The notes under the pieces are model-generated. The model saw nothing but the letters and a program-made list of their open reading frames with translations, was not told the origin of the DNA and did not search any database. Positions 1,293 through 26,332 of a stretch of 64,000 bases of DNA are shown here, piece by piece. The position numbers and the translations under genes are program-made. Origin of the DNA: Alphaproteobacteria bacterium (GTDB lineage Bacteria; Pseudomonadota; Alphaproteobacteria; Bin95); assembly GCA_022825195.1 (NCBI GenBank), contig JAJDYL010000103.1:7874-71873 (forward strand), written 5' to 3'. Numbering within the stretch: position 1 is the stretch's first letter; every line of letters begins with the position of its first letter.

Positions 1293-2243
1293 TCAGGCGG
1301 CGGAGACGGACCCGAATTCCCTTTGCTGCGCGCGCGCCACTTTGCGAACGGTTTCGGCGAAGAACCTGAAAGCGGAAATGTCCCAGGCCGAAATGCGCGA
1401 GACGATACCGGCGCGCAACCGGGTCCTGCCGAAGTCGAGCGGCAGAGGCTTGAGGCGGGGGCCGGGGATCCTGCCGAGGAACGCGACCGGGAGTCGGGAC
1501 AGGTAAGGCCCCGTGCCCATCAGCGCCAGGCCCGCGGGACCGGCGCGGACGACTGTGCCCACGCGTTTTCCGGTTCTGGCGAAGAGTTCGTTGAGCAGTG
1601 TCGCCAGGGGCGGCTGTTCCTCGTCATCCCGCGTTCTCGCGGGAGCTTCGCAGTCGATCCAGGGCCAGTCGGCCAGGTCGTCGCAGGTTGTCTTTTCGGT
1701 GTGAAGCGGGTGGTCCGAGCGGGCGACGATGCGCGATGTCATGTTGAAGAAGCTTTCGCGCCGCAGGATCGCCGGGAGGAGCCGTTCGGCGTCGATGCGG
1801 CCGCAATGGAGATCGCTCTCGCCGTTGACGAGCAGGCGGATACCCTCGGGGAATGTCATGGCATGGAGCCTGAGCTCGACGTTCGGGAAGGCCTCATGAA
1901 ATCTGGCGACGACCTCGGGCATGACCGCCTGCATCCATGTCGGGCCTGCGGTGACCCGCAGGCCGCTGGAATGGCCCGACAGCGCCGACTTGACCCTGCC
2001 TTCGGCGGTCTCGATCTCGTGCAGGATGTGGCGGGCCTGATCTGCGGCCGTGGCGCCGAATTCGGTAAGGCGGACGCCTGTCGGGAGCCGTTCGAACAGC
2101 TTTCCGCCGAATGCCGCCTCGAGCCGGGCGATGGCGCGCGACAATGCCGGTTGCGTCATTGCGATCCGGTCCGCCGCGCCCAGAACCGTGCCGGTTTCCG
2201 CAACAATGAGGAACTTCTTCAGGTCGCTGCGCTTTTCGAACAT
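1293..2243 (-). CDS. LysR-family transcriptional regulator
   Basis: N-terminal HTH (…GAADRIAMTQPALSRAIARLE…) plus LysR substrate-binding domain; GGAGAG RBS 8 nt upstream of the ATG. Confidence 0.9.
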   Translation of the reverse strand: MFEKRSDLKKFLIVAETGTVLGAADRIAMTQPALSRAIARLEAAFGGKLFERLPTGVRLTEFGATAADQARHILHEIETAEGRVKSALSGHSSGLRVTAGPTWMQAVMPEVVARFHEAFPNVELRLHAMTFPEGIRLLVNGESDLHCGRIDAERLLPAILRRESFFNMTSRIVARSDHPLHTEKTTCDDLADWPWIDCEAPARTRDDEEQPPLATLLNELFARTGKRVGTVVRAGPAGLALMGTGPYLSRLPVAFLGRIPGPRLKPLPLDFGRTRLRAGIVSRISAWDISAFRFFAETVRKVARAQQREFGSVSAA

Positions 2244-2760
2244 GCCGGCTTCTCTCCTTCGGCAGTCCGGAAGGAATCTTTGACATGCTATATATGTATA
2301 TGGCCGATGAAGTTAAGGGTGATAACATGGGTTTTTCGGTAAATTACACGAGTTTGTGAACATATTTTAACTCATAAGAATAGCCTATATGGCCTATAGG
2401 TTTTTCTCTTGAAACTCACAAGAAGGGGCAGAAGCAGCTATTATATTCGAATTATTACCTTATGTATTTCTCGCATAAAATTCGTTTATAGGCATTTCCG
2501 AAAGGGAGCATATACGCAGCCCTCTTGCCGTCATGCCCTGAGCTTATCTAAGGGGGCGTTCGGGCATGACGGAAAGAGAGCCGGGACGCCGGAGGCATCC
2601 TTCGCAACGAGCATGTCCAGGGCGCTGTCGGCGCCCATGGCTCCCCTGGCCGCCGACCCGAACGGAGTTATCCTTTCCGGGCATGTGCCGGCTGCCGACC
2701 GGAAGCTCCTGCCGTCCGACGAAGTCCCCTGCCGCCCGATGCAGAGGCGAGGATTGTCCG
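2244..2760. promoter_or_regulatory. AT-rich non-coding island containing the lysR promoter/RBS, a CCTATA-N5-TATAGG palindrome (2384-2400) and an 11-bp-stem hairpin (2527-2572)
   Basis: Visibly AT-rich versus its flanks; TTGACA at 2280 followed by TATATAT-rich sequence. The hairpin is inverted GCCGTCATGCC/GGCATGACGG(a). Confidence 0.6.
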
Positions 2761-3285
2761 TTACGAACTGCTGATGGCGGCAAGGATGGGCCGGATGGCG
2801 CGGTCGGCGATGTCCGCCAGTTCGTCCGGCGTGCGGTTCTGGATCGGATGGTCCACGAACACCACGGCCGGACGCACGCCCATGGCGTCGGCCTGCGCCG
2901 TCGCGGCGTCCCGGAACTCGACGGTCGCTACCGCGCAGCCGGGCATCCCCAGGCGATCGAGCTCGTTCATGTCATGCAAACTGCACGACGTGCACGAGCC
3001 TCAGTCCGCCAGCCCTTCGACAACGATGTCGCAGCGCTCCACAAGGTCCTGGATGACGCCGCGGGGAGCCGGCTTGGTGTGTGTCGGCTTGGCGAAGCGG
3101 AGCACGTTCAGGCCCCGCACCGCGAGCCGTTGCTCCACCGTGTCGAGAAACTCCACCGACCGCTCCTTGCCGATGGAAAGCAGGCCGATGGTGAGGCCGT
3201 CGAGACTCGTCGGCGGAACGACGGGCTGGCGCATGACCGGCTCCGTCTCCGCCGTCGGGTCTCGCATCGCATAGGGTTCCGTCAT
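2761..3285 (-). CDS. UGSC-motif (seleno)protein; in-frame TGA at 3001-3003 read as selenocysteine
   Basis: ORFs 3001..3342(-) and 2761..2979(-) are in the same frame and join across a single TGA, giving …VVEGLAD-U-GSCTSCSLHDMNELD…. The likely start is the internal ATG at 3283-3285 (MTEPYAMRDP…), which overlaps the upstream gene's stop as ATGA. Confidence 0.65.
2955..3000 (-). other. candidate SECIS-like stem-loop immediately 3' of the in-frame UGA
   Basis: mRNA reads UGA-GGCUCGU[GCAC-GUC-GUGC…CAUGACAUG]ACGAGCU. A 7-bp outer stem starts 1 nt after the UGA and encloses shorter internal pairings. Confidence 0.4.
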
Positions 3286-4886
3286 GTACCGATCTCCTTG
3301 GTTACAGGGTCCACCTGGCCGGCAATCCGCATTCCGGACCATCCGCCGATCACCGCCGAGAACAGGCCCGCCGGCCCGCCGGCGCGCGCGATGATGAATG
3401 TGCCTTCGCGGAATTTGTCGATCATTTCATCCTCGCGGCCGGGGTCTATCCCCTCGGCCAGTCCGCCCGCCCCCCGCACGACCTCGCTTCCGGGGCGCTT
3501 GAGGGCAGAGATGAGGGCGTCCTCGATCTCGCTGCGGCCCCAGCCGTCGTCCTTGTAGATTGCATGGTGCTCGGGCGAGAGCACCAGCAGGGCTCCGCCG
3601 AATTCGCAGAGCTTCGGGTGGTTCACGTTCCACAGGTAGCGGACCAGCGAGGCCGTCAGTTCTTCCGCCGTCCGGCTTTTCTGGTCCACGAACCCGCTCA
3701 CCCCTTCGCCGTGGAACAGGGTGACGGCCGATGCGCCCGGCCGGATGCCGCGCGAGACCGAAAGCGGCGTCCAGTCCGGGTCGGTCTCGTCCTCGGCGAA
3801 GCAGAAGGTGTATTTGCCCGGATTGCCCTGCATTGCGCGGTCGATTTCGCCCGGCCGGCCGCCGCCGACATTGCGGATGATGAGCTGGAAGGCCCGGCCG
3901 ATGGTCGCGTTGGCCCGGTTGCCCTGGCCGAGCGCGTTCAGGCCCCAGTTCATGCCGATGCGCCGCGCGACGGGGCCGTTCACGATGATGACCGGCCCGG
4001 CGAAATGGGTCGTGCAGAGCAGGCCGTGCATGGAGAAGCCCGGTATCAGCGCCGCTTCGACCGCCGCGAGAACGGTCGGGAAATATTCGGGCCGGCAGCC
4101 GGCCATCACGGCATTGATGGCCGCCTTCTCCACGGTGCAGGGCGCGAGGTTGGGCGGAATATCCCCGATAATTTCGTCCGCCGCCCGCGTCGTGCCCGCC
4201 AGCATCCGCGCGACGCGCAGGTCGGTCGGCGGCACGATCGGCAGCCCGTCCGTCCAGCCGCGGTCGAAGGCCGTCTCCATCGGGTCGTCATGGTCCTCCA
4301 CGACGATCCGGCGCGCCGAAAGCGGGATGTCGCCGAACCGCACGGCCAGCCTCTCCGGCATCCCGAATTCGACCGACAGAGACCCGCATCCGGGCTGGTT
4401 GTCCGGCAGGCTCTCGCCGAGATCGGCGCGGCCTGTCAGTGCGCGCCACTCGGCCTTGTTCCATCCGATCGCACGTTCGGCTTCGCTGCCGCCGCTGAAG
4501 CGGATCAGCGTCGGCACGGTCTCGATGTCGAGCCGGTAGGAGAGCTCCAGGTCGCCGTCATGCCGGGGGGCCGCACCCTCGGGAAAGGCGGGATCGTCCT
4601 GCGTGACCGCTACGGCGCCCCCCGCCGCCAGTTCCGCAAGGAGCGGCGCAACGAGGACGCAGGTCGGGCAGTCCCGCTTGACCACGGCAAGCAGGCCGTC
4701 GGAAGGAAGGGCGTCGCGCCAGCCGGTCACTCGTCCGTCTCCATGTTCGGTATGCGCAGTCTGCACGGAATCCGCACCGGACTCCAATTTTCGCCGGTCG
4801 CTTTGATAAAGTGTTTGCCAAGTGTATCTGTACACGGTACACCTTGGGGCAAATCCATAATGTCTGGTTGCGTGAAGTTTCGACAC
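3282..4886 (-). CDS. thioredoxin/glutaredoxin-like CxxC domain fused to a large uncharacterised C-terminal domain; true start uncertain
   Basis: …LLAVVKRDCPTCVLVAPLL… is a CPxC redox motif in a beta-strand/helix context. The stop is ATGA-coupled to the UGSC gene. The annotated GTG start lies inside the higB remnant, so the real start is probably further in. Confidence 0.6.
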   Translation of the reverse strand: MSKLHATRHYGFAPRCTVYRYTWQTLYQSDRRKLESGADSVQTAHTEHGDGRVTGWRDALPSDGLLAVVKRDCPTCVLVAPLLAELAAGGAVAVTQDDPAFPEGAAPRHDGDLELSYRLDIETVPTLIRFSGGSEAERAIGWNKAEWRALTGRADLGESLPDNQPGCGSLSVEFGMPERLAVRFGDIPLSARRIVVEDHDDPMETAFDRGWTDGLPIVPPTDLRVARMLAGTTRAADEIIGDIPPNLAPCTVEKAAINAVMAGCRPEYFPTVLAAVEAALIPGFSMHGLLCTTHFAGPVIIVNGPVARRIGMNWGLNALGQGNRANATIGRAFQLIIRNVGGGRPGEIDRAMQGNPGKYTFCFAEDETDPDWTPLSVSRGIRPGASAVTLFHGEGVSGFVDQKSRTAEELTASLVRYLWNVNHPKLCEFGGALLVLSPEHHAIYKDDGWGRSEIEDALISALKRPGSEVVRGAGGLAEGIDPGREDEMIDKFREGTFIIARAGGPAGLFSAVIGGWSGMRIAGQVDPVTKEIGT

Positions 4887-5065
4887 AAAGGGCTACAAGC
4901 GTTCTTCGAGCGGGACGAAGCTCGGCGCCTGCCCGGATACCTCTCCATGCCCTGAAGGGCGACCGGCGGGGCCAGTGGAGCATCCGCGTGTCCGGCAATT
5001 GGCGCGTCACCTGTCGCTTCGTCGAAGGTGGGGCCGTCGATATCGATCCGGTCGACTACCATTAG
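4860..5065 (+). pseudogene. higB: higB (HigB/RelE-type killer protein) remnant, frameshifted and shortened
   Basis: The N-terminal MSGCVKFRHKGLQAFFERDEARRLPGY is in one frame. The C-terminal …LHALKGDRRGQWSIRVSGNWRVTCRFVEGGAVDIDPVDYH is in another frame. Total length is about 206 nt against about 280 nt for intact HigB. Confidence 0.6.
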
Positions 5066-5077
5066 GGAGAGACGCCA

Positions 5078-5350
5078 ATGACCGACGCGATGATGAACCC
5101 GTCCCATCCGGGAGAAACGATCCGTGATTGCATCGAGGAAATGGGTTGGACCGTGACATATGCCGCCGGACAGTTGGGCGTGGCGAGGCATACCCTCTCG
5201 CGCCTGCTCAACGGCCATTCGGGTGTTTCGCCGTCGATGGCGCTGGCGCTGGAGCGGGTCGGCTGGAGCAATGCCGGTTTCTGGATGCGGCGGCAGGCCT
5301 CCTGGGACCTGGCGCAGGCAAGGTTGCGCGAAAGCACCAGAGCCGCGTGA
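5078..5350 (+). CDS. higA: HigA-family antitoxin (XRE HTH)
   Basis: …NPSHPGETIRDCIEEMGWTVTYAAGQLGVARHTLSRLLNGHSGVSPSMALALE… is the classic HigA HTH, 12 nt after the higB remnant. Confidence 0.85.
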   Translation: MTDAMMNPSHPGETIRDCIEEMGWTVTYAAGQLGVARHTLSRLLNGHSGVSPSMALALERVGWSNAGFWMRRQASWDLAQARLRESTRAA

Positions 5351-8446: not shown

Positions 8447-9238
8447 GTGATTCTTCCTGTCATTCCGTTCCCGGCCATCGACCCGGTCGCGGTAGAGCTG
8501 GGGCCGCTGGCGATTCGCTGGTATGCGCTGGCCTATCTCGTCGGCCTGATCGCCGGCTGGCGCCTTGCGCGCCGCCTTGCCGCCCTGCCGCCGCGGCCGA
8601 TGCGTCCCGAGCGCGTGGACGACCTGCTGGCCTGGATGGTGCTGGGCGTGGTGGCCGGGGGGCGGCTCGGCTACGTGCTGTTCTACAAGCCCGGCTACTA
8701 TCTCCAGAATCCGGGCGAGGCGCTGTTCCTGTGGCAGGGCGGCATGTCGTTCCACGGCGGCATGGCCGGCGTTGCGCTCGCAGTCTTCCTGTTCGCGCGC
8801 CGGCATGACCTGCCGTTCCTGCGGGTGGGCGATATCGTGGCGGCGGTCACCCCCCTGGGCCTGTTCCTCGGGCGGCTCGCCAATTTCGTGAACGGCGAGC
8901 TCTACGGCCGGGCGTCCGACGTCTCCTGGGCGATGGTCTTTCCCTCGGACCCGGCGCAGGTGCCGCGCCACCCGAGCCAGCTCTACGAAGCGGCGCTGGA
9001 AGGCCTGGCGCTCGGAGCGGTCATGCTGGCGCTGGCGTTCAGCGAGCGGGTGAGGGCGCGCCCCGGCCTGCTGGCGGGCGTCTTCATGCTCGGCTACGGG
9101 CTCGCGCGGTCCTTCGTCGAGTTCTTTCGCGAGCCGGACGCGCATCTCGGGTTCATCCTGGGGCCGGTCACCATGGGGCAGTTATTGTCCCTGCCGCTGA
9201 TCGTCGCCGGCCTCTTCCTGCTGGTCCGCAGGCCGTGA
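8447..9238 (+). CDS. lgt: prolipoprotein diacylglyceryl transferase
   Basis: Lgt signature, polytopic membrane protein (…QGGMSFHGGMAGV…HPSQLYEA…). Confidence 0.9.
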   Translation: MILPVIPFPAIDPVAVELGPLAIRWYALAYLVGLIAGWRLARRLAALPPRPMRPERVDDLLAWMVLGVVAGGRLGYVLFYKPGYYLQNPGEALFLWQGGMSFHGGMAGVALAVFLFARRHDLPFLRVGDIVAAVTPLGLFLGRLANFVNGELYGRASDVSWAMVFPSDPAQVPRHPSQLYEAALEGLALGAVMLALAFSERVRARPGLLAGVFMLGYGLARSFVEFFREPDAHLGFILGPVTMGQLLSLPLIVAGLFLLVRRP

Positions 9239-10242
9239 CCGCCGGCCTCGGCGCCCGCCTTGCCCGGCGCATCGGGCGCGACGGCCCGATTCCGCTTGCC
9301 GAGTTCATGGCGTTGAACAACGCGGCCTACTATGCCGGCCGCGACCCGTTCGGCCGCGGCGGCGACTTCGTGACCGCGCCCGAGGTCAGCCAGATATTCG
9401 GCGAGATCGTGGGGCTGTGGTGCGTCGATGCCTGGGAGCGGCTGGGCCGTCCCGCGGAGGTCCGGCTGATCGAGCTCGGGCCCGGCCGCGGCGTGCTGAT
9501 GGCGGATGCGCTGCGCGCCGCGCGGCTGGAGCCGGCATTCCGGCCCGAGATCCATCTGGTCGAGACCTCGCCGGCGCTGCGCGCGCTCCAGCGTTCGCAG
9601 GGCTTCGATGCGGTCTGGCACGACCGGCCGGAGACGATACCGGACGGTCCGTCCATCTGGATTGCGAACGAGTTCTTCGACGCCCTGCCCGTCCGACAGT
9701 TCGTGCGAATCGGCGGTCGCTGGCATGAACGCCTGGTGGACCGGGACGGAGACGGTTTCCGCTTCGTCGCGGGCCCGGCGCTCCGCCGCGCGGGGTCCGG
9801 CGAGGACGGCGACATTGCCGAAGTCTGCCCGGCGGCGGGCGGCATCGCCGCGACACTGGCGGCGCGTCCGGGCTACGGCCTCGCGATCGATTACGGCTAT
9901 GCGGAGGCGCAGCGCGCCGCGACCCTGCAGGCGGTCAGTGGGCATGCGCCGGTCGATCCGTTGTCCCGGCCGGGCGGAGCGGACATGAGCGCGCATGTGG
10001 ACTTCGGGGCTTTGATGCGCGCGGGCCGCGAGGCCGGCGCGGCGGTCTGGGGGCCGGTGCCGCAGGGCGAATGGCTCAAGCGCCTGGGCATCGAGGCCCG
10101 CGCCGCCCGGCTCGGCTGCCAGGACGATGCGCTGGCCCGGCTGACCGGCGGGGACGCCATGGGCCGGCTGTTCCGGGTGCTTGCCTTCGGCCCGGCGAGC
10201 GAACCCGCGCCGGCCGGGTTCTGCGACGGGGAAGGGGGATGA
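9235..10242 (+). CDS. class I SAM-dependent methyltransferase, MidA/NDUFAF7-like (DUF185)
   Basis: …DFVTAPEVSQIFGEIVGLW…IELGPGRGVLMAD…; 4-nt overlap with lgt. Confidence 0.8.
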   Translation: MTAGLGARLARRIGRDGPIPLAEFMALNNAAYYAGRDPFGRGGDFVTAPEVSQIFGEIVGLWCVDAWERLGRPAEVRLIELGPGRGVLMADALRAARLEPAFRPEIHLVETSPALRALQRSQGFDAVWHDRPETIPDGPSIWIANEFFDALPVRQFVRIGGRWHERLVDRDGDGFRFVAGPALRRAGSGEDGDIAEVCPAAGGIAATLAARPGYGLAIDYGYAEAQRAATLQAVSGHAPVDPLSRPGGADMSAHVDFGALMRAGREAGAAVWGPVPQGEWLKRLGIEARAARLGCQDDALARLTGGDAMGRLFRVLAFGPASEPAPAGFCDGEGG

Positions 10243-10994
10243 TGGAAAAGGGAGCGCTTTCCGGCCTCGAGGGCGTCGCGCATGCCTTTCTGGACCGCGG
10301 CGGCGGCGTCAGCACGGGCCTCTATGCCGGCCTCAATTGCGGCTTCGGCTCCTGCGACGACCGGGATGCGGTGAGCGAGAACCGGCGCCGCGCGCTGGCG
10401 GCGGTCGGCGCGGAGCGTCTGGCGACCCTCCACCAGGTCCACAGCGCCGAGGCTGCGATCCTGACGGAGCCCCCGAAGCGCCTCAGGGCCGACGGCATGG
10501 CCACGGACCGTCCGGGCCTTGCGCTCGGCATCCTGACGGCGGACTGCGCGCCCGTCCTGTTCGCGGACGCGCGGGCGGGCGTGGTCGGGGCCGCCCATGC
10601 CGGCTGGCGGGGCGCGCTCGCCGGCATCGCCGAATCGGTCCTGGAGCGGATGGAGTGGCTCGGCGCGCGGGCGGGGCGGACGGTGGCCGCCGTCGGCCCC
10701 TGCATCGGGCAGGAATCCTACGAGGTCGGCCCCGAGTTCCGGGCGGCGTTCGAGGCCGCGGACCCCGATAACGAACGCTGGTTCGTCCCGGCCGTGCGGC
10801 CCGGCCACTTCCGCTTCGACCTCGCGGGATATGTCGGGGCGCGGCTGGAGCGCGCGGGCCTCGCGGCGGTCTCGGTCGCCCGGGCCGATACCTGTGCCGA
10901 GGAGGAGCGCTTCTTCAGCTACCGCCGCGCCTGCCTGAGAGGCGAGACGGACTACGGACGGCAGTTGTCGCTGGTGGCGCTGCGGCCCCGCTGA
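10239..10994 (+). CDS. pgeF: peptidoglycan editing factor PgeF (YfiH/laccase-domain protein)
   Basis: …QVHSAEAAIL…TADCAPVLFADARAGVVGAAHAGWRG…; start trimmed to the ATG in the ATGA overlap with the preceding gene. Confidence 0.85.
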   Translation: MMEKGALSGLEGVAHAFLDRGGGVSTGLYAGLNCGFGSCDDRDAVSENRRRALAAVGAERLATLHQVHSAEAAILTEPPKRLRADGMATDRPGLALGILTADCAPVLFADARAGVVGAAHAGWRGALAGIAESVLERMEWLGARAGRTVAAVGPCIGQESYEVGPEFRAAFEAADPDNERWFVPAVRPGHFRFDLAGYVGARLERAGLAAVSVARADTCAEEERFFSYRRACLRGETDYGRQLSLVALRPR

Positions 10995-10997
10995 CCG

Positions 10998-13856
<2,859 letters not shown>

Positions 13857-26085: not shown

Positions 26086-26112
26086 GGCGGCCCCGGAAGC
26101 CGCCTTTCTCTC
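26086..26112 (+). terminator. GC hairpin GGCGGC-cccggaa-GCCGCC followed by TTTCTCTC
   Basis: Read directly; the T-rich tail is only moderate. Confidence 0.4.
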
Positions 26113-26332
26113 ATGCCTATTCTACACCATTCCTCGGAAAGTCAAGCCATTTGGGAACAAAAAATGAAAAACCGGACAACTTTCTCACAACCCGTTGAAC
26201 CGGCAGGACAATATCGGTGTTGCCGGATTGGGACCCATGAGGAACAGCGCTCCACCGCCGCCCCGGCCCCGGCCTTTGCGGAGGCAGCGAAGGGGCGGCC
26301 CCGTCATCGGTTCCGGTCGATGCCCGCTGGTA

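Follow-up and report, generated by a model that had tools for sequence, protein, structure and literature searches.

A conserved AT-rich region upstream of lysR in a group of alphaproteobacteria and its probable role in lysR control

LysR-type transcriptional regulators (LTTRs) act on operators that have the form of an interrupted T-N11-A dyad and lie upstream of the regulated or divergent promoter. Classical LTTR operators cover about 50-60 bp. A different kind of promoter DNA is recognized by the nucleoid protein MucR. The MucR sites in the Brucella btaE, bpdB and babR promoters span 141-217 nt, have an AT content of 74-83% and contain many TA steps; at btaE a specific activator, the counter-silencer MdrA, displaces MucR (PMC10746212). 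In Sinorhizobium, the recruitment of MucR drops as the G+C content rises (PMC9410896). The locus described here, an AT-rich island immediately upstream of a lysR gene, resembles each of these two systems in some respects and departs from each in others.

The stretch of alphaproteobacterial DNA that was analysed (the window) is 64,000 nucleotides long and has a mean G+C content of 69.2% (sd 5%, in 150-nt windows over the whole 64 kb). Its contig turns up in sequencing run SRR16351696 as well. The lowest-G+C spot of the 64 kb, with a minimum of 31%, falls inside 2181-2590; the only other part below 50% G+C is a single marginal 150-nt window at 26101-26250 (49%). The main features around this minimum are as follows:

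1293-2243, minus strand: lysR, which encodes a 316-aa LysR-type regulator (PF00126 and PF03466 matches); the island is its upstream region.
About 2275-2503, no strand: the AT-rich core of the island, 231 nt long, 34% G+C, with 27 TA steps.
2761-3342, minus strand: a UGSC-family selenoprotein gene (NF041046, PF24696) with an in-frame TGA at 3001-3003; its 3' end bounds the interval.

The initial annotation had described a 0.5-kb AT-rich island at 2244-2760. The drop in composition is confirmed by the sliding-window G+C profile, but the size is not: the AT-rich part covers only about 0.23 kb, and the remaining 0.26 kb or so (2504-2760) is G+C-rich, returning to about 55-82% G+C, and non-coding. 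The core is 66% AT, compared with 31% for the window, and no region of the window is denser in TA steps, of which the window as a whole has 1.2 per 100 nt. The absence of a credible ORF from the interval also holds up, as the ORFs at 2409-2774 (plus strand) and 2544-2783 (minus strand) have no Pfam or NCBIfam match, and the flanking genes are those first described, with lysR on one side and the selenoprotein gene on the other. Since both of these genes run leftward, the interval follows the selenoprotein operon and precedes lysR in the direction of transcription. There is hardly any doubt that this AT-rich, ORF-free island is regulatory.

A scan of one genome per species gave eight lysR orthologue loci (L002-L009), all of them in uncultured alphaproteobacterial metagenome-assembled genomes (MAGs), several of whose names we take as a hint of sponge origin. 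A ninth locus came from the metagenome collection, in which an IUPAC pattern built from the most conserved stretch of the island (block 2, below) has one true match, directly upstream of a lysR orthologue on contig L047; two further matches, in contigs of 33% G+C, were set aside as chance. Alignment A1 comprises the upstream regions, and alignment A3 adds the contig as a tenth sequence. The LysR orthologues in these nine other loci are 77-83% identical to the LysR of the window. Each of the eight genome orthologues is preceded by a G+C trough (24-40%) that spans about 230-240 bp, at about -40 to -280 from the lysR ATG, and the metagenome contig carries an island of the same size at the same offset. 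The island is kept whatever its upstream neighbour may be: a gene for a protein with FN3 and Calx-beta domains (L003, L006), an ARPP-1 gene (L002, L004, L005, L009, L047) or a deletion (L007 and the window). No such trough was found in 23 loci with a LysR that is 47-54% identical, where the composition shows short shallow dips to 40-55% G+C.

The occurrence of the island in ten genomes or contigs with LysR proteins that differ by up to 23% means that it is older than their divergence and has been inherited with lysR. Judged by these alignments, the island is an old feature specific to this group of lysR orthologues. Two suggestions of the initial annotation are thereby contradicted, namely that the island might be a horizontally acquired junction, and that it might be xenogeneic, recently acquired DNA of the sort targeted by silencers. 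It occupies the same locus in all ten genomes or contigs, and the deletion junction that does exist here (2504-2701) only adjoins it. When the spacer is compared across relatives, as had been proposed, it proves to be conserved essentially only as the lysR promoter.

Conservation within the island is uneven. The conserved columns are clustered, with 11 of 12 columns in the best alignment window (permutation P = 0.0008). Even the 90 least conserved columns have a G+C content of 39%, in genomes of 66-69% G+C, and this persistence of AT-richness in variable columns means that the composition itself is maintained. Mean identity over the island is 56%, compared with 66% at the four-fold synonymous sites of lysR; because the former is not above the latter, constraint can be demonstrated for the conserved blocks only and not for the island as a whole. 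These blocks, and a weaker dyad, are the following:

2346-2361, no strand: dyad TCAC-N6-GTG(T) (A1 columns 265-280, A3 columns 154-167), 62% of cells paired; moderately conserved and weaker than the blocks.
2372-2410, no strand: conserved block 2, reading AAGAAAAAC..AT.G..A.G.TA.T.TTATG on the lysR strand; no other stretch of the island is as well conserved (identity 0.88-0.93).
2459-2501, no strand: conserved block 1, reading GGAAATGCCKATAAAGGAATTTyCATGCA-N5-TGCATAAAG on the lysR strand; the distal edge of the conserved unit.

Block 1 consists of two short imperfect palindromes, GGAAATGCCKAT..ATTTyC followed by ATGCA-N5-TGCAT (lysR strand), and is separated from block 2 by an AT-rich, non-conserved spacer of about 50 nt. 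Elsewhere in the window and in the loci, both block motifs have chance-level matches only, and, as they do not recur in the window, no regulon backs an operator reading. A looping model in which blocks 1 and 2 are inverted copies of one motif was rejected, as a PWM scan misses block 2.

The palindrome CCTATA-TGGCC-TATAGG at 2384-2400 lies inside block 2, is followed by T5 and was initially proposed as a possible LysR box. The palindrome is present. At this site, however, the nine orthologous islands read CTAATAGGnCACCAAAG, from which the window differs at 8 of 28 positions, and the helix-turn-helix of LysR, including the recognition helix, is virtually identical in the window and in the orthologues. 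A palindrome found only in this genome, next to a regulator with the same helix-turn-helix as its relatives, is unlikely to be the LysR recognition element. Its inner part, CTATA-N5-TATAG (2385-2399), does fit T-N11-A, and it is absent from the nine orthologues. No conserved canonical T-N11-A LysR dyad was found in the island among the ten aligned sequences; the dyads that are conserved, AACT-N13-AGTT and TCAC-N6-GTG, are not of the canonical LTTR type.

The lysR-proximal end of the island and the single scan match that points the other way are described by three further features:

2237-2271, minus strand: predicted lysR translation-initiation hairpin, with arms CCGGACUGCCG and CCGGCAUGUUCG (RNAalifold).
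2280-2316, minus strand: candidate lysR core promoter, with a -35 element TTAACT (2311-2316), a 16-nt spacer, a -10 element TATATA (2289-2294) and TGTCA (2281-2285).
2415-2444, plus strand: sigma-70-like match CTCACA-18-TATTAT, directed away from lysR (promoter scan, 1 found and 0.4 expected).

The arrangement TTAAnT-16/17-TAnATA-n-TGTCA is positionally conserved in the 10 orthologues, 40-50 nt before the lysR ATG, and from this we infer that TTAACT, TATATA and TGTCA mark the -35, -10 and start region of lysR. A strict sigma-70 scan places the candidate hexamers of the window, and those of L003, L006 and L007, under its threshold. The same DNA had been read in the opposite direction, as a TTGACA/TATATAT promoter pointing towards the selenoprotein gene. 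Both motifs are indeed there (2280-2285 and 2289-2295), but they are 3 nt apart and therefore cannot be a -35/-10 pair; the scan gives no match, and a 17-nt spacer after TTGACA would lead to a -10 that reads GCCGAT. The two motifs are the reverse complement of the conserved lysR-strand block TAnATA-n-TGTCA, and fit the lysR -10 and start region. The plus-strand match CTCACA-18-TATTAT falls where the island is conserved least (identity 0.44-0.52) and is probably a chance match. Downstream of the candidate promoter, the Shine-Dalgarno sequence AAGGAG (2254-2259) lies in the loop of the predicted initiation hairpin and the AUG (2241-2243) in its 3' arm. Across the 10 orthologues 95% of the cells of this hairpin are paired, and G-U variants as well as 2 compensatory cells occur.

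The G+C-rich part of the interval, beyond the distal edge of block 1, contains two features of another kind:

2519-2581, no strand: REP-like palindromic repeat at the deletion junction, with 20-nt arms (2519-2538 and 2562-2581) that are 90% complementary.
2597-2701, minus strand: fragment of a nucleotidyltransferase gene, 35 codons (residues 18-52 of 109), a pseudogene remnant found by tblastn and blastn.

The nucleotidyltransferase fragment shows 60% identity over 35 aa (E = 8e-8, tblastn) and 81% nucleotide identity (blastn). An intact copy of the gene, with a PF01909 match, is located downstream of the UGSC gene, between ARPP-1 and UGSC, in L002, L004 and L009. The presence of this fragment identifies the G+C-rich part of the interval (2504-2701) as a deletion scar, and homology to the other genomes starts again exactly where conserved block 1 has its distal edge, at about 2501-2503. 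The relatives indicate what the scar replaced. L003 and L006 carry a large gene that is transcribed away from lysR, with its start about 60 nt past the island. The L003 product is a protein of 1011 aa with a signal peptide, four FN3 domains and a Calx-beta domain; first read by eye as an autotransporter, it lost that label because its C-terminal 470 residues have zero matches in Pfam, NCBIfam and PDB sequence searches, and it is here called a secreted FN3/Calx-beta repeat protein. In L002, L004, L005, L009 and L047 this gene has been lost save for remnants, and an ARPP-1 gene (PF20208) lies further out. In L007 and in the window the UGSC gene is only about 520 bp from lysR, and L007 retains 43 C-terminal codons of ARPP-1. 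Remnants of lost genes were found in L002, L003, L007 and L047. By comparison with these relatives, a deletion in this genome has removed the FN3/Calx-beta gene, the ARPP-1 gene and most of the nucleotidyltransferase gene. The junction sits beside the island, not in it, and the island thus adjoins a recent deletion. On the other side of lysR the window is without 2-4.5 kb that relatives have before a xanthine-dehydrogenase-like gene. An IS transposase is present in L002, and a HigBA pair is close by.

A long hairpin had been noted in the interval at 2527-2572. It exists, with the somewhat longer arms given above, and folds as RNA with a dG of -40.8 kcal/mol (z = -5.3); it lies outside the AT-rich core and, rather than being a conserved feature of the locus, is one copy of a dispersed repeat. 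The repeat core CGTCATRYCCGRA occurs eight times in L009, five times in L033, twice in L017 and once each in L002 and the window, with 0.02 expected from shuffling, and the extended hairpin has matches of 86-100% identity at several unrelated sites in L009 and L033. On these counts the hairpin belongs to a family of dispersed REP-like repeats. An apparent equivalence with a conserved hairpin before the divergent gene in the orthologues (A1 columns 60-100) was traced to a spurious alignment and dropped, the window hairpin belonging to the repeat family. On the minus strand the hairpin is followed by GCUGCGUAUAUGC, which has no U-run, and a terminator scan found none in the interval, this hairpin included; without a U-run, it does not qualify as a canonical terminator of the UGSC operon. 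Like REP elements, it forms an imperfect palindrome about 60 nt long, G+C-rich, intergenic, multi-copy, often clustered in related genomes and situated at a rearrangement junction. Unlike them, the family is single-copy in this 64 kb.

Taken together, these observations make it probable that the AT-rich core at about 2275-2503 is a conserved upstream control region of lysR, with both promoter and operator. The core would consist of the lysR promoter, the 5' leader and about 200 bp of operator DNA, the last containing two strongly conserved putative footprints (2372-2410 and 2459-2501) and the weaker dyad at 2346-2361. We infer that site-specific regulators, with LysR among the candidates, bind the conserved blocks. 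The AT-richness may be selected for easy melting and/or as a binding site for MucR or another nucleoid protein with a preference for AT, and the outcome would be a silencer/counter-silencer arrangement like that of alphaproteobacterial adhesin promoters. The ancestral layout would have been a divergent intergenic region between lysR and the large secreted FN3/Calx-beta gene, as retained in two relatives. The ARPP-1 gene and most of the nucleotidyltransferase gene, which stand between UGSC and lysR in relatives, have been lost here along with the FN3/Calx-beta gene, in a deletion whose end coincides exactly with the conserved unit's distal edge and which left the REP-like palindrome and the gene fragment (2504-2701).

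A wider reading joins several of these elements, and we offer it tentatively, with a minor share of our confidence. The island might be a self-contained module under selection for composition, a silencer-nucleation platform with LysR counter-silencer sites, that has remained with lysR while the surface-protein gene formerly under its control was lost repeatedly and independently. In this genome, transcription from the orphaned divergent promoter might then continue across the REP hairpin and run antisense to the UGSC selenoprotein operon, or block 1 might be an RNA-level leader element of lysR.

Among the alternatives to a lysR control region, the one that survives best explains the island by composition alone, as a generic MucR/H-NS-like nucleation patch or a DNA-melting element with no LysR binding; we regard it as unlikely. 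The island does have the trait typical of MucR/H-NS-type targets, as it is extended, far more AT-rich than the window and contains many TA steps. Its length, AT content and TA-step density resemble those of the mapped MucR sites (PMC10746212), and the AT-richness that persists in the non-conserved columns is what such an element would show. Selection on composition only, however, would not keep sequence-specific blocks at 88-93% identity, and A/T tracts in the island give no 10-11 bp signal of helical phasing. A tblastn search with an approximate MucR sequence gave no match in the window or in the orthologous loci, a result that carries no information, as it covers just a small part of the genome. 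By analogy with the mapped sites, the island may in our preferred reading, too, be a binding platform for a MucR-like nucleoid protein.

We also considered, as an improbable alternative, that the distal island is transcribed on the lysR strand, either within an extended leader of lysR or as an independent small RNA (sRNA), and that block 1 acts as RNA through the hairpins GGAAAU..AUUUCC and AUGCA-N5-UGCAU. The second of these helices gives the reading some substance: it is 92% paired in the 10 orthologues, it has two G-C compensatory cells (in L003 and L004, which belong to different subclades), and its G-U intermediates in L005 and L008 pair on the lysR strand only. The compensatory cells and the strand-specific G-U pairs keep an RNA-level role of block 1 weakly alive. 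More robust measures of covariation, however, are the same as in shuffles; for five candidate helices in the 10 orthologues there are 4 double-change pairs, with 3.2 expected. The fold of the whole island on the lysR strand (z = -0.66) is no better than that of shuffled sequences, and a plus-strand signal of z = -3.07 is best explained by the REP hairpin included in it, which has z = -5.3 by itself. A permissive Rfam search over 1800-3400 returned noise only (the best match, with E = 0.077, is of a miRNA model to the REP hairpin), and a tRNA/tmRNA scan found none near the interval. No conserved promoter is located upstream of block 1, where in the window the DNA has been replaced by the deletion junction, and the block 1 hairpin is degraded in the window (4 bp, with a 1-nt deletion). 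The initial suggestion of an sRNA locus is thus not borne out, there being no Rfam match, no fold signal and no terminator.

A short peptide or leader ORF that starts at the ATG in block 1, with the pattern MxxxH[KR]VxIR... and an AAGGAA-like ribosome binding site before it, is very improbable. Eight of the 10 orthologues have the ATG, with AAGGA 5-6 nt upstream in about five; L004, L006, L007 and L047 keep an open frame of 25 codons, as does L009 save for its start codon; and the K/R and V/I exchanges look conservative. Against coding, the frame shows no codon periodicity (the mean pairwise differences at the first, second and third codon positions are 0.49, 0.43 and 0.43), its length varies from 5 to 36 codons and its middle is unconserved. 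L005 has a GTG and an early stop, and L009 an ACG. In the window the candidate comprises 11 codons (2478-2443, minus strand), and its Shine-Dalgarno sequence has been lost (AAACGAA). Another frame of block 1, MPIKEFSCxxC, was discarded because it is frameshifted in the window and the compensatory changes in the palindrome destroy its second Cys.

Foreign DNA, whether a horizontally acquired junction or a mobile-element remnant, has next to no likelihood and is already largely refuted: the composition is extreme for this genome, the neighbourhood is plastic (deletions on both sides of lysR, the transposase and the HigBA pair) and a REP-like repeat abuts the island, but the island lies in the same place with alignable blocks across the ten divergent genomes and contigs, has no terminal repeats, integrase or tRNA, and the true junction is the G+C-rich 2504-2701.

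The conserved lysR control region remains our preferred reading, and it has several implications. It clears up an anomaly, in that the strongest composition drop of the 64 kb would be an old, inherited control region and not foreign DNA or a hidden gene. The island also appears to be a clean example of AT-richness that is held by selection in a 69% G+C genome despite sequence drift, and of a regulator that keeps its entire upstream region after the neighbouring target gene has been lost. In addition, the blocks at 2372-2410 and 2459-2501 could be used for finding binding proteins in these uncultured alphaproteobacteria. In kind, the island is ordinary and does not point to a new class of system.

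The closest parallels are divergent LTTR promoter/operator regions and MucR-silenced promoters. The island differs from the former in that its conserved AT-rich stretch is about 230 bp long, compared with the roughly 50-60 bp of classical operators, in that it persists after loss of the divergent gene, and in that it is without a conserved T-N11-A dyad, the sole T-N11-A-like palindrome (2384-2400) being genome-specific. It agrees with them in its position immediately upstream of lysR, its short dyads and the promoter that we assign to lysR, as well as in the ancestral divergent gene opposite lysR and the conservation of the island together with its regulator. From MucR-silenced promoters such as that of Brucella btaE the island differs in being vertically conserved and not xenogeneic, and in that the putative silenced gene is absent here; no autotransporter or adhesin match was found for the C-terminal 470 residues of its partner protein, and the likeness is one read from the DNA letters. 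It nevertheless shares with these promoters a length of more than 140 nt, a very AT-rich and TA-step-rich composition within a G+C-rich alphaproteobacterium, an ancestral position upstream of a large secreted repeat protein, and a dedicated transcription factor gene next to it.

The 3' end of lysR in the window is separated by only 23 bp (1270-1293) from a convergent xanthine-dehydrogenase-like gene. In L002-L009, eight alphaproteobacterial metagenome-assembled loci whose LysR is 77-83% identical to that of the window, this place is occupied by 2-4.5 kb of additional genes (6945 to about 9100-11500), among them a transposase of the IS type (L002) and transporter genes resembling znuA/znuB (L003 and L005). 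Since this stretch is present in the related loci and absent from the window, the genome has deletions on both flanks of lysR. The features at these flanks and in the neighboring genes are as follows.

Window 2237-2271, minus strand: conserved lysR leader hairpin whose loop carries the Shine-Dalgarno sequence and whose stem includes the AUG
Window 2519-2581; L009 8660-8800 and 10550-10990; L033 3470-3880; L017 338-450: REP-like palindromic repeats
L003 5560-5700; L006 5560-5700; equivalent in L002, L005, L007 and L009: conserved hairpin GAAGACCCC..GGGGTCTTC
Window 3282-4886, minus strand: gene for a 534-aa protein; it overlaps the UGSC selenoprotein gene at the latter's start
Window 4811-5350; L004 896-1512; L007 2816-3432: HigB/HigA toxin-antitoxin pair

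The REP-like family, which is absent from Rfam, has the core CGTCATRYCCGRA, often adjoined by CCGGAACAAGTCCGG. Its repeats are grouped in clusters in some related genomes, and the single copy in the 64-kb window is located at the deletion junction. Also deleted in the window is the hairpin stretch that precedes the divergent FN3/Calx-beta gene, a large secreted repeat-protein gene still present in L003 and L006. This hairpin lies within the approximately 60 nt separating the AT-rich island from the gene start and shows some changes that are compensatory. About 50 nt inside the annotated start of the open reading frame, L003 and L006 also have a terminator-like stem and T-run. The stretch may be a regulatory leader of the FN3/Calx-beta gene.

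The HigB/HigA pair coincides in the window with a second, milder G+C dip (55%). The only other 150-nt segment below 50% G+C in the 64 kb, besides the island region, is 26101-26250 (49%). HigA is 94-98% identical to its counterparts in L004 and L007, and HigB matches there only piecemeal, in three broken tblastn segments; these fragmentary matches suggest that the toxin is decaying in both genomes.

The 534-aa protein has no family match in Pfam or NCBIfam. Seven related loci carry its gene, 85-91% conserved, in synteny with UGSC, and the product may be an uncharacterized partner of the UGSC (seleno)protein.

On the lysR side, pairing in the leader hairpin is 95% across the ten orthologues (the window, L002-L009 and L047), with G-U variants on the minus strand, and this predicted structure could limit lysR translation.
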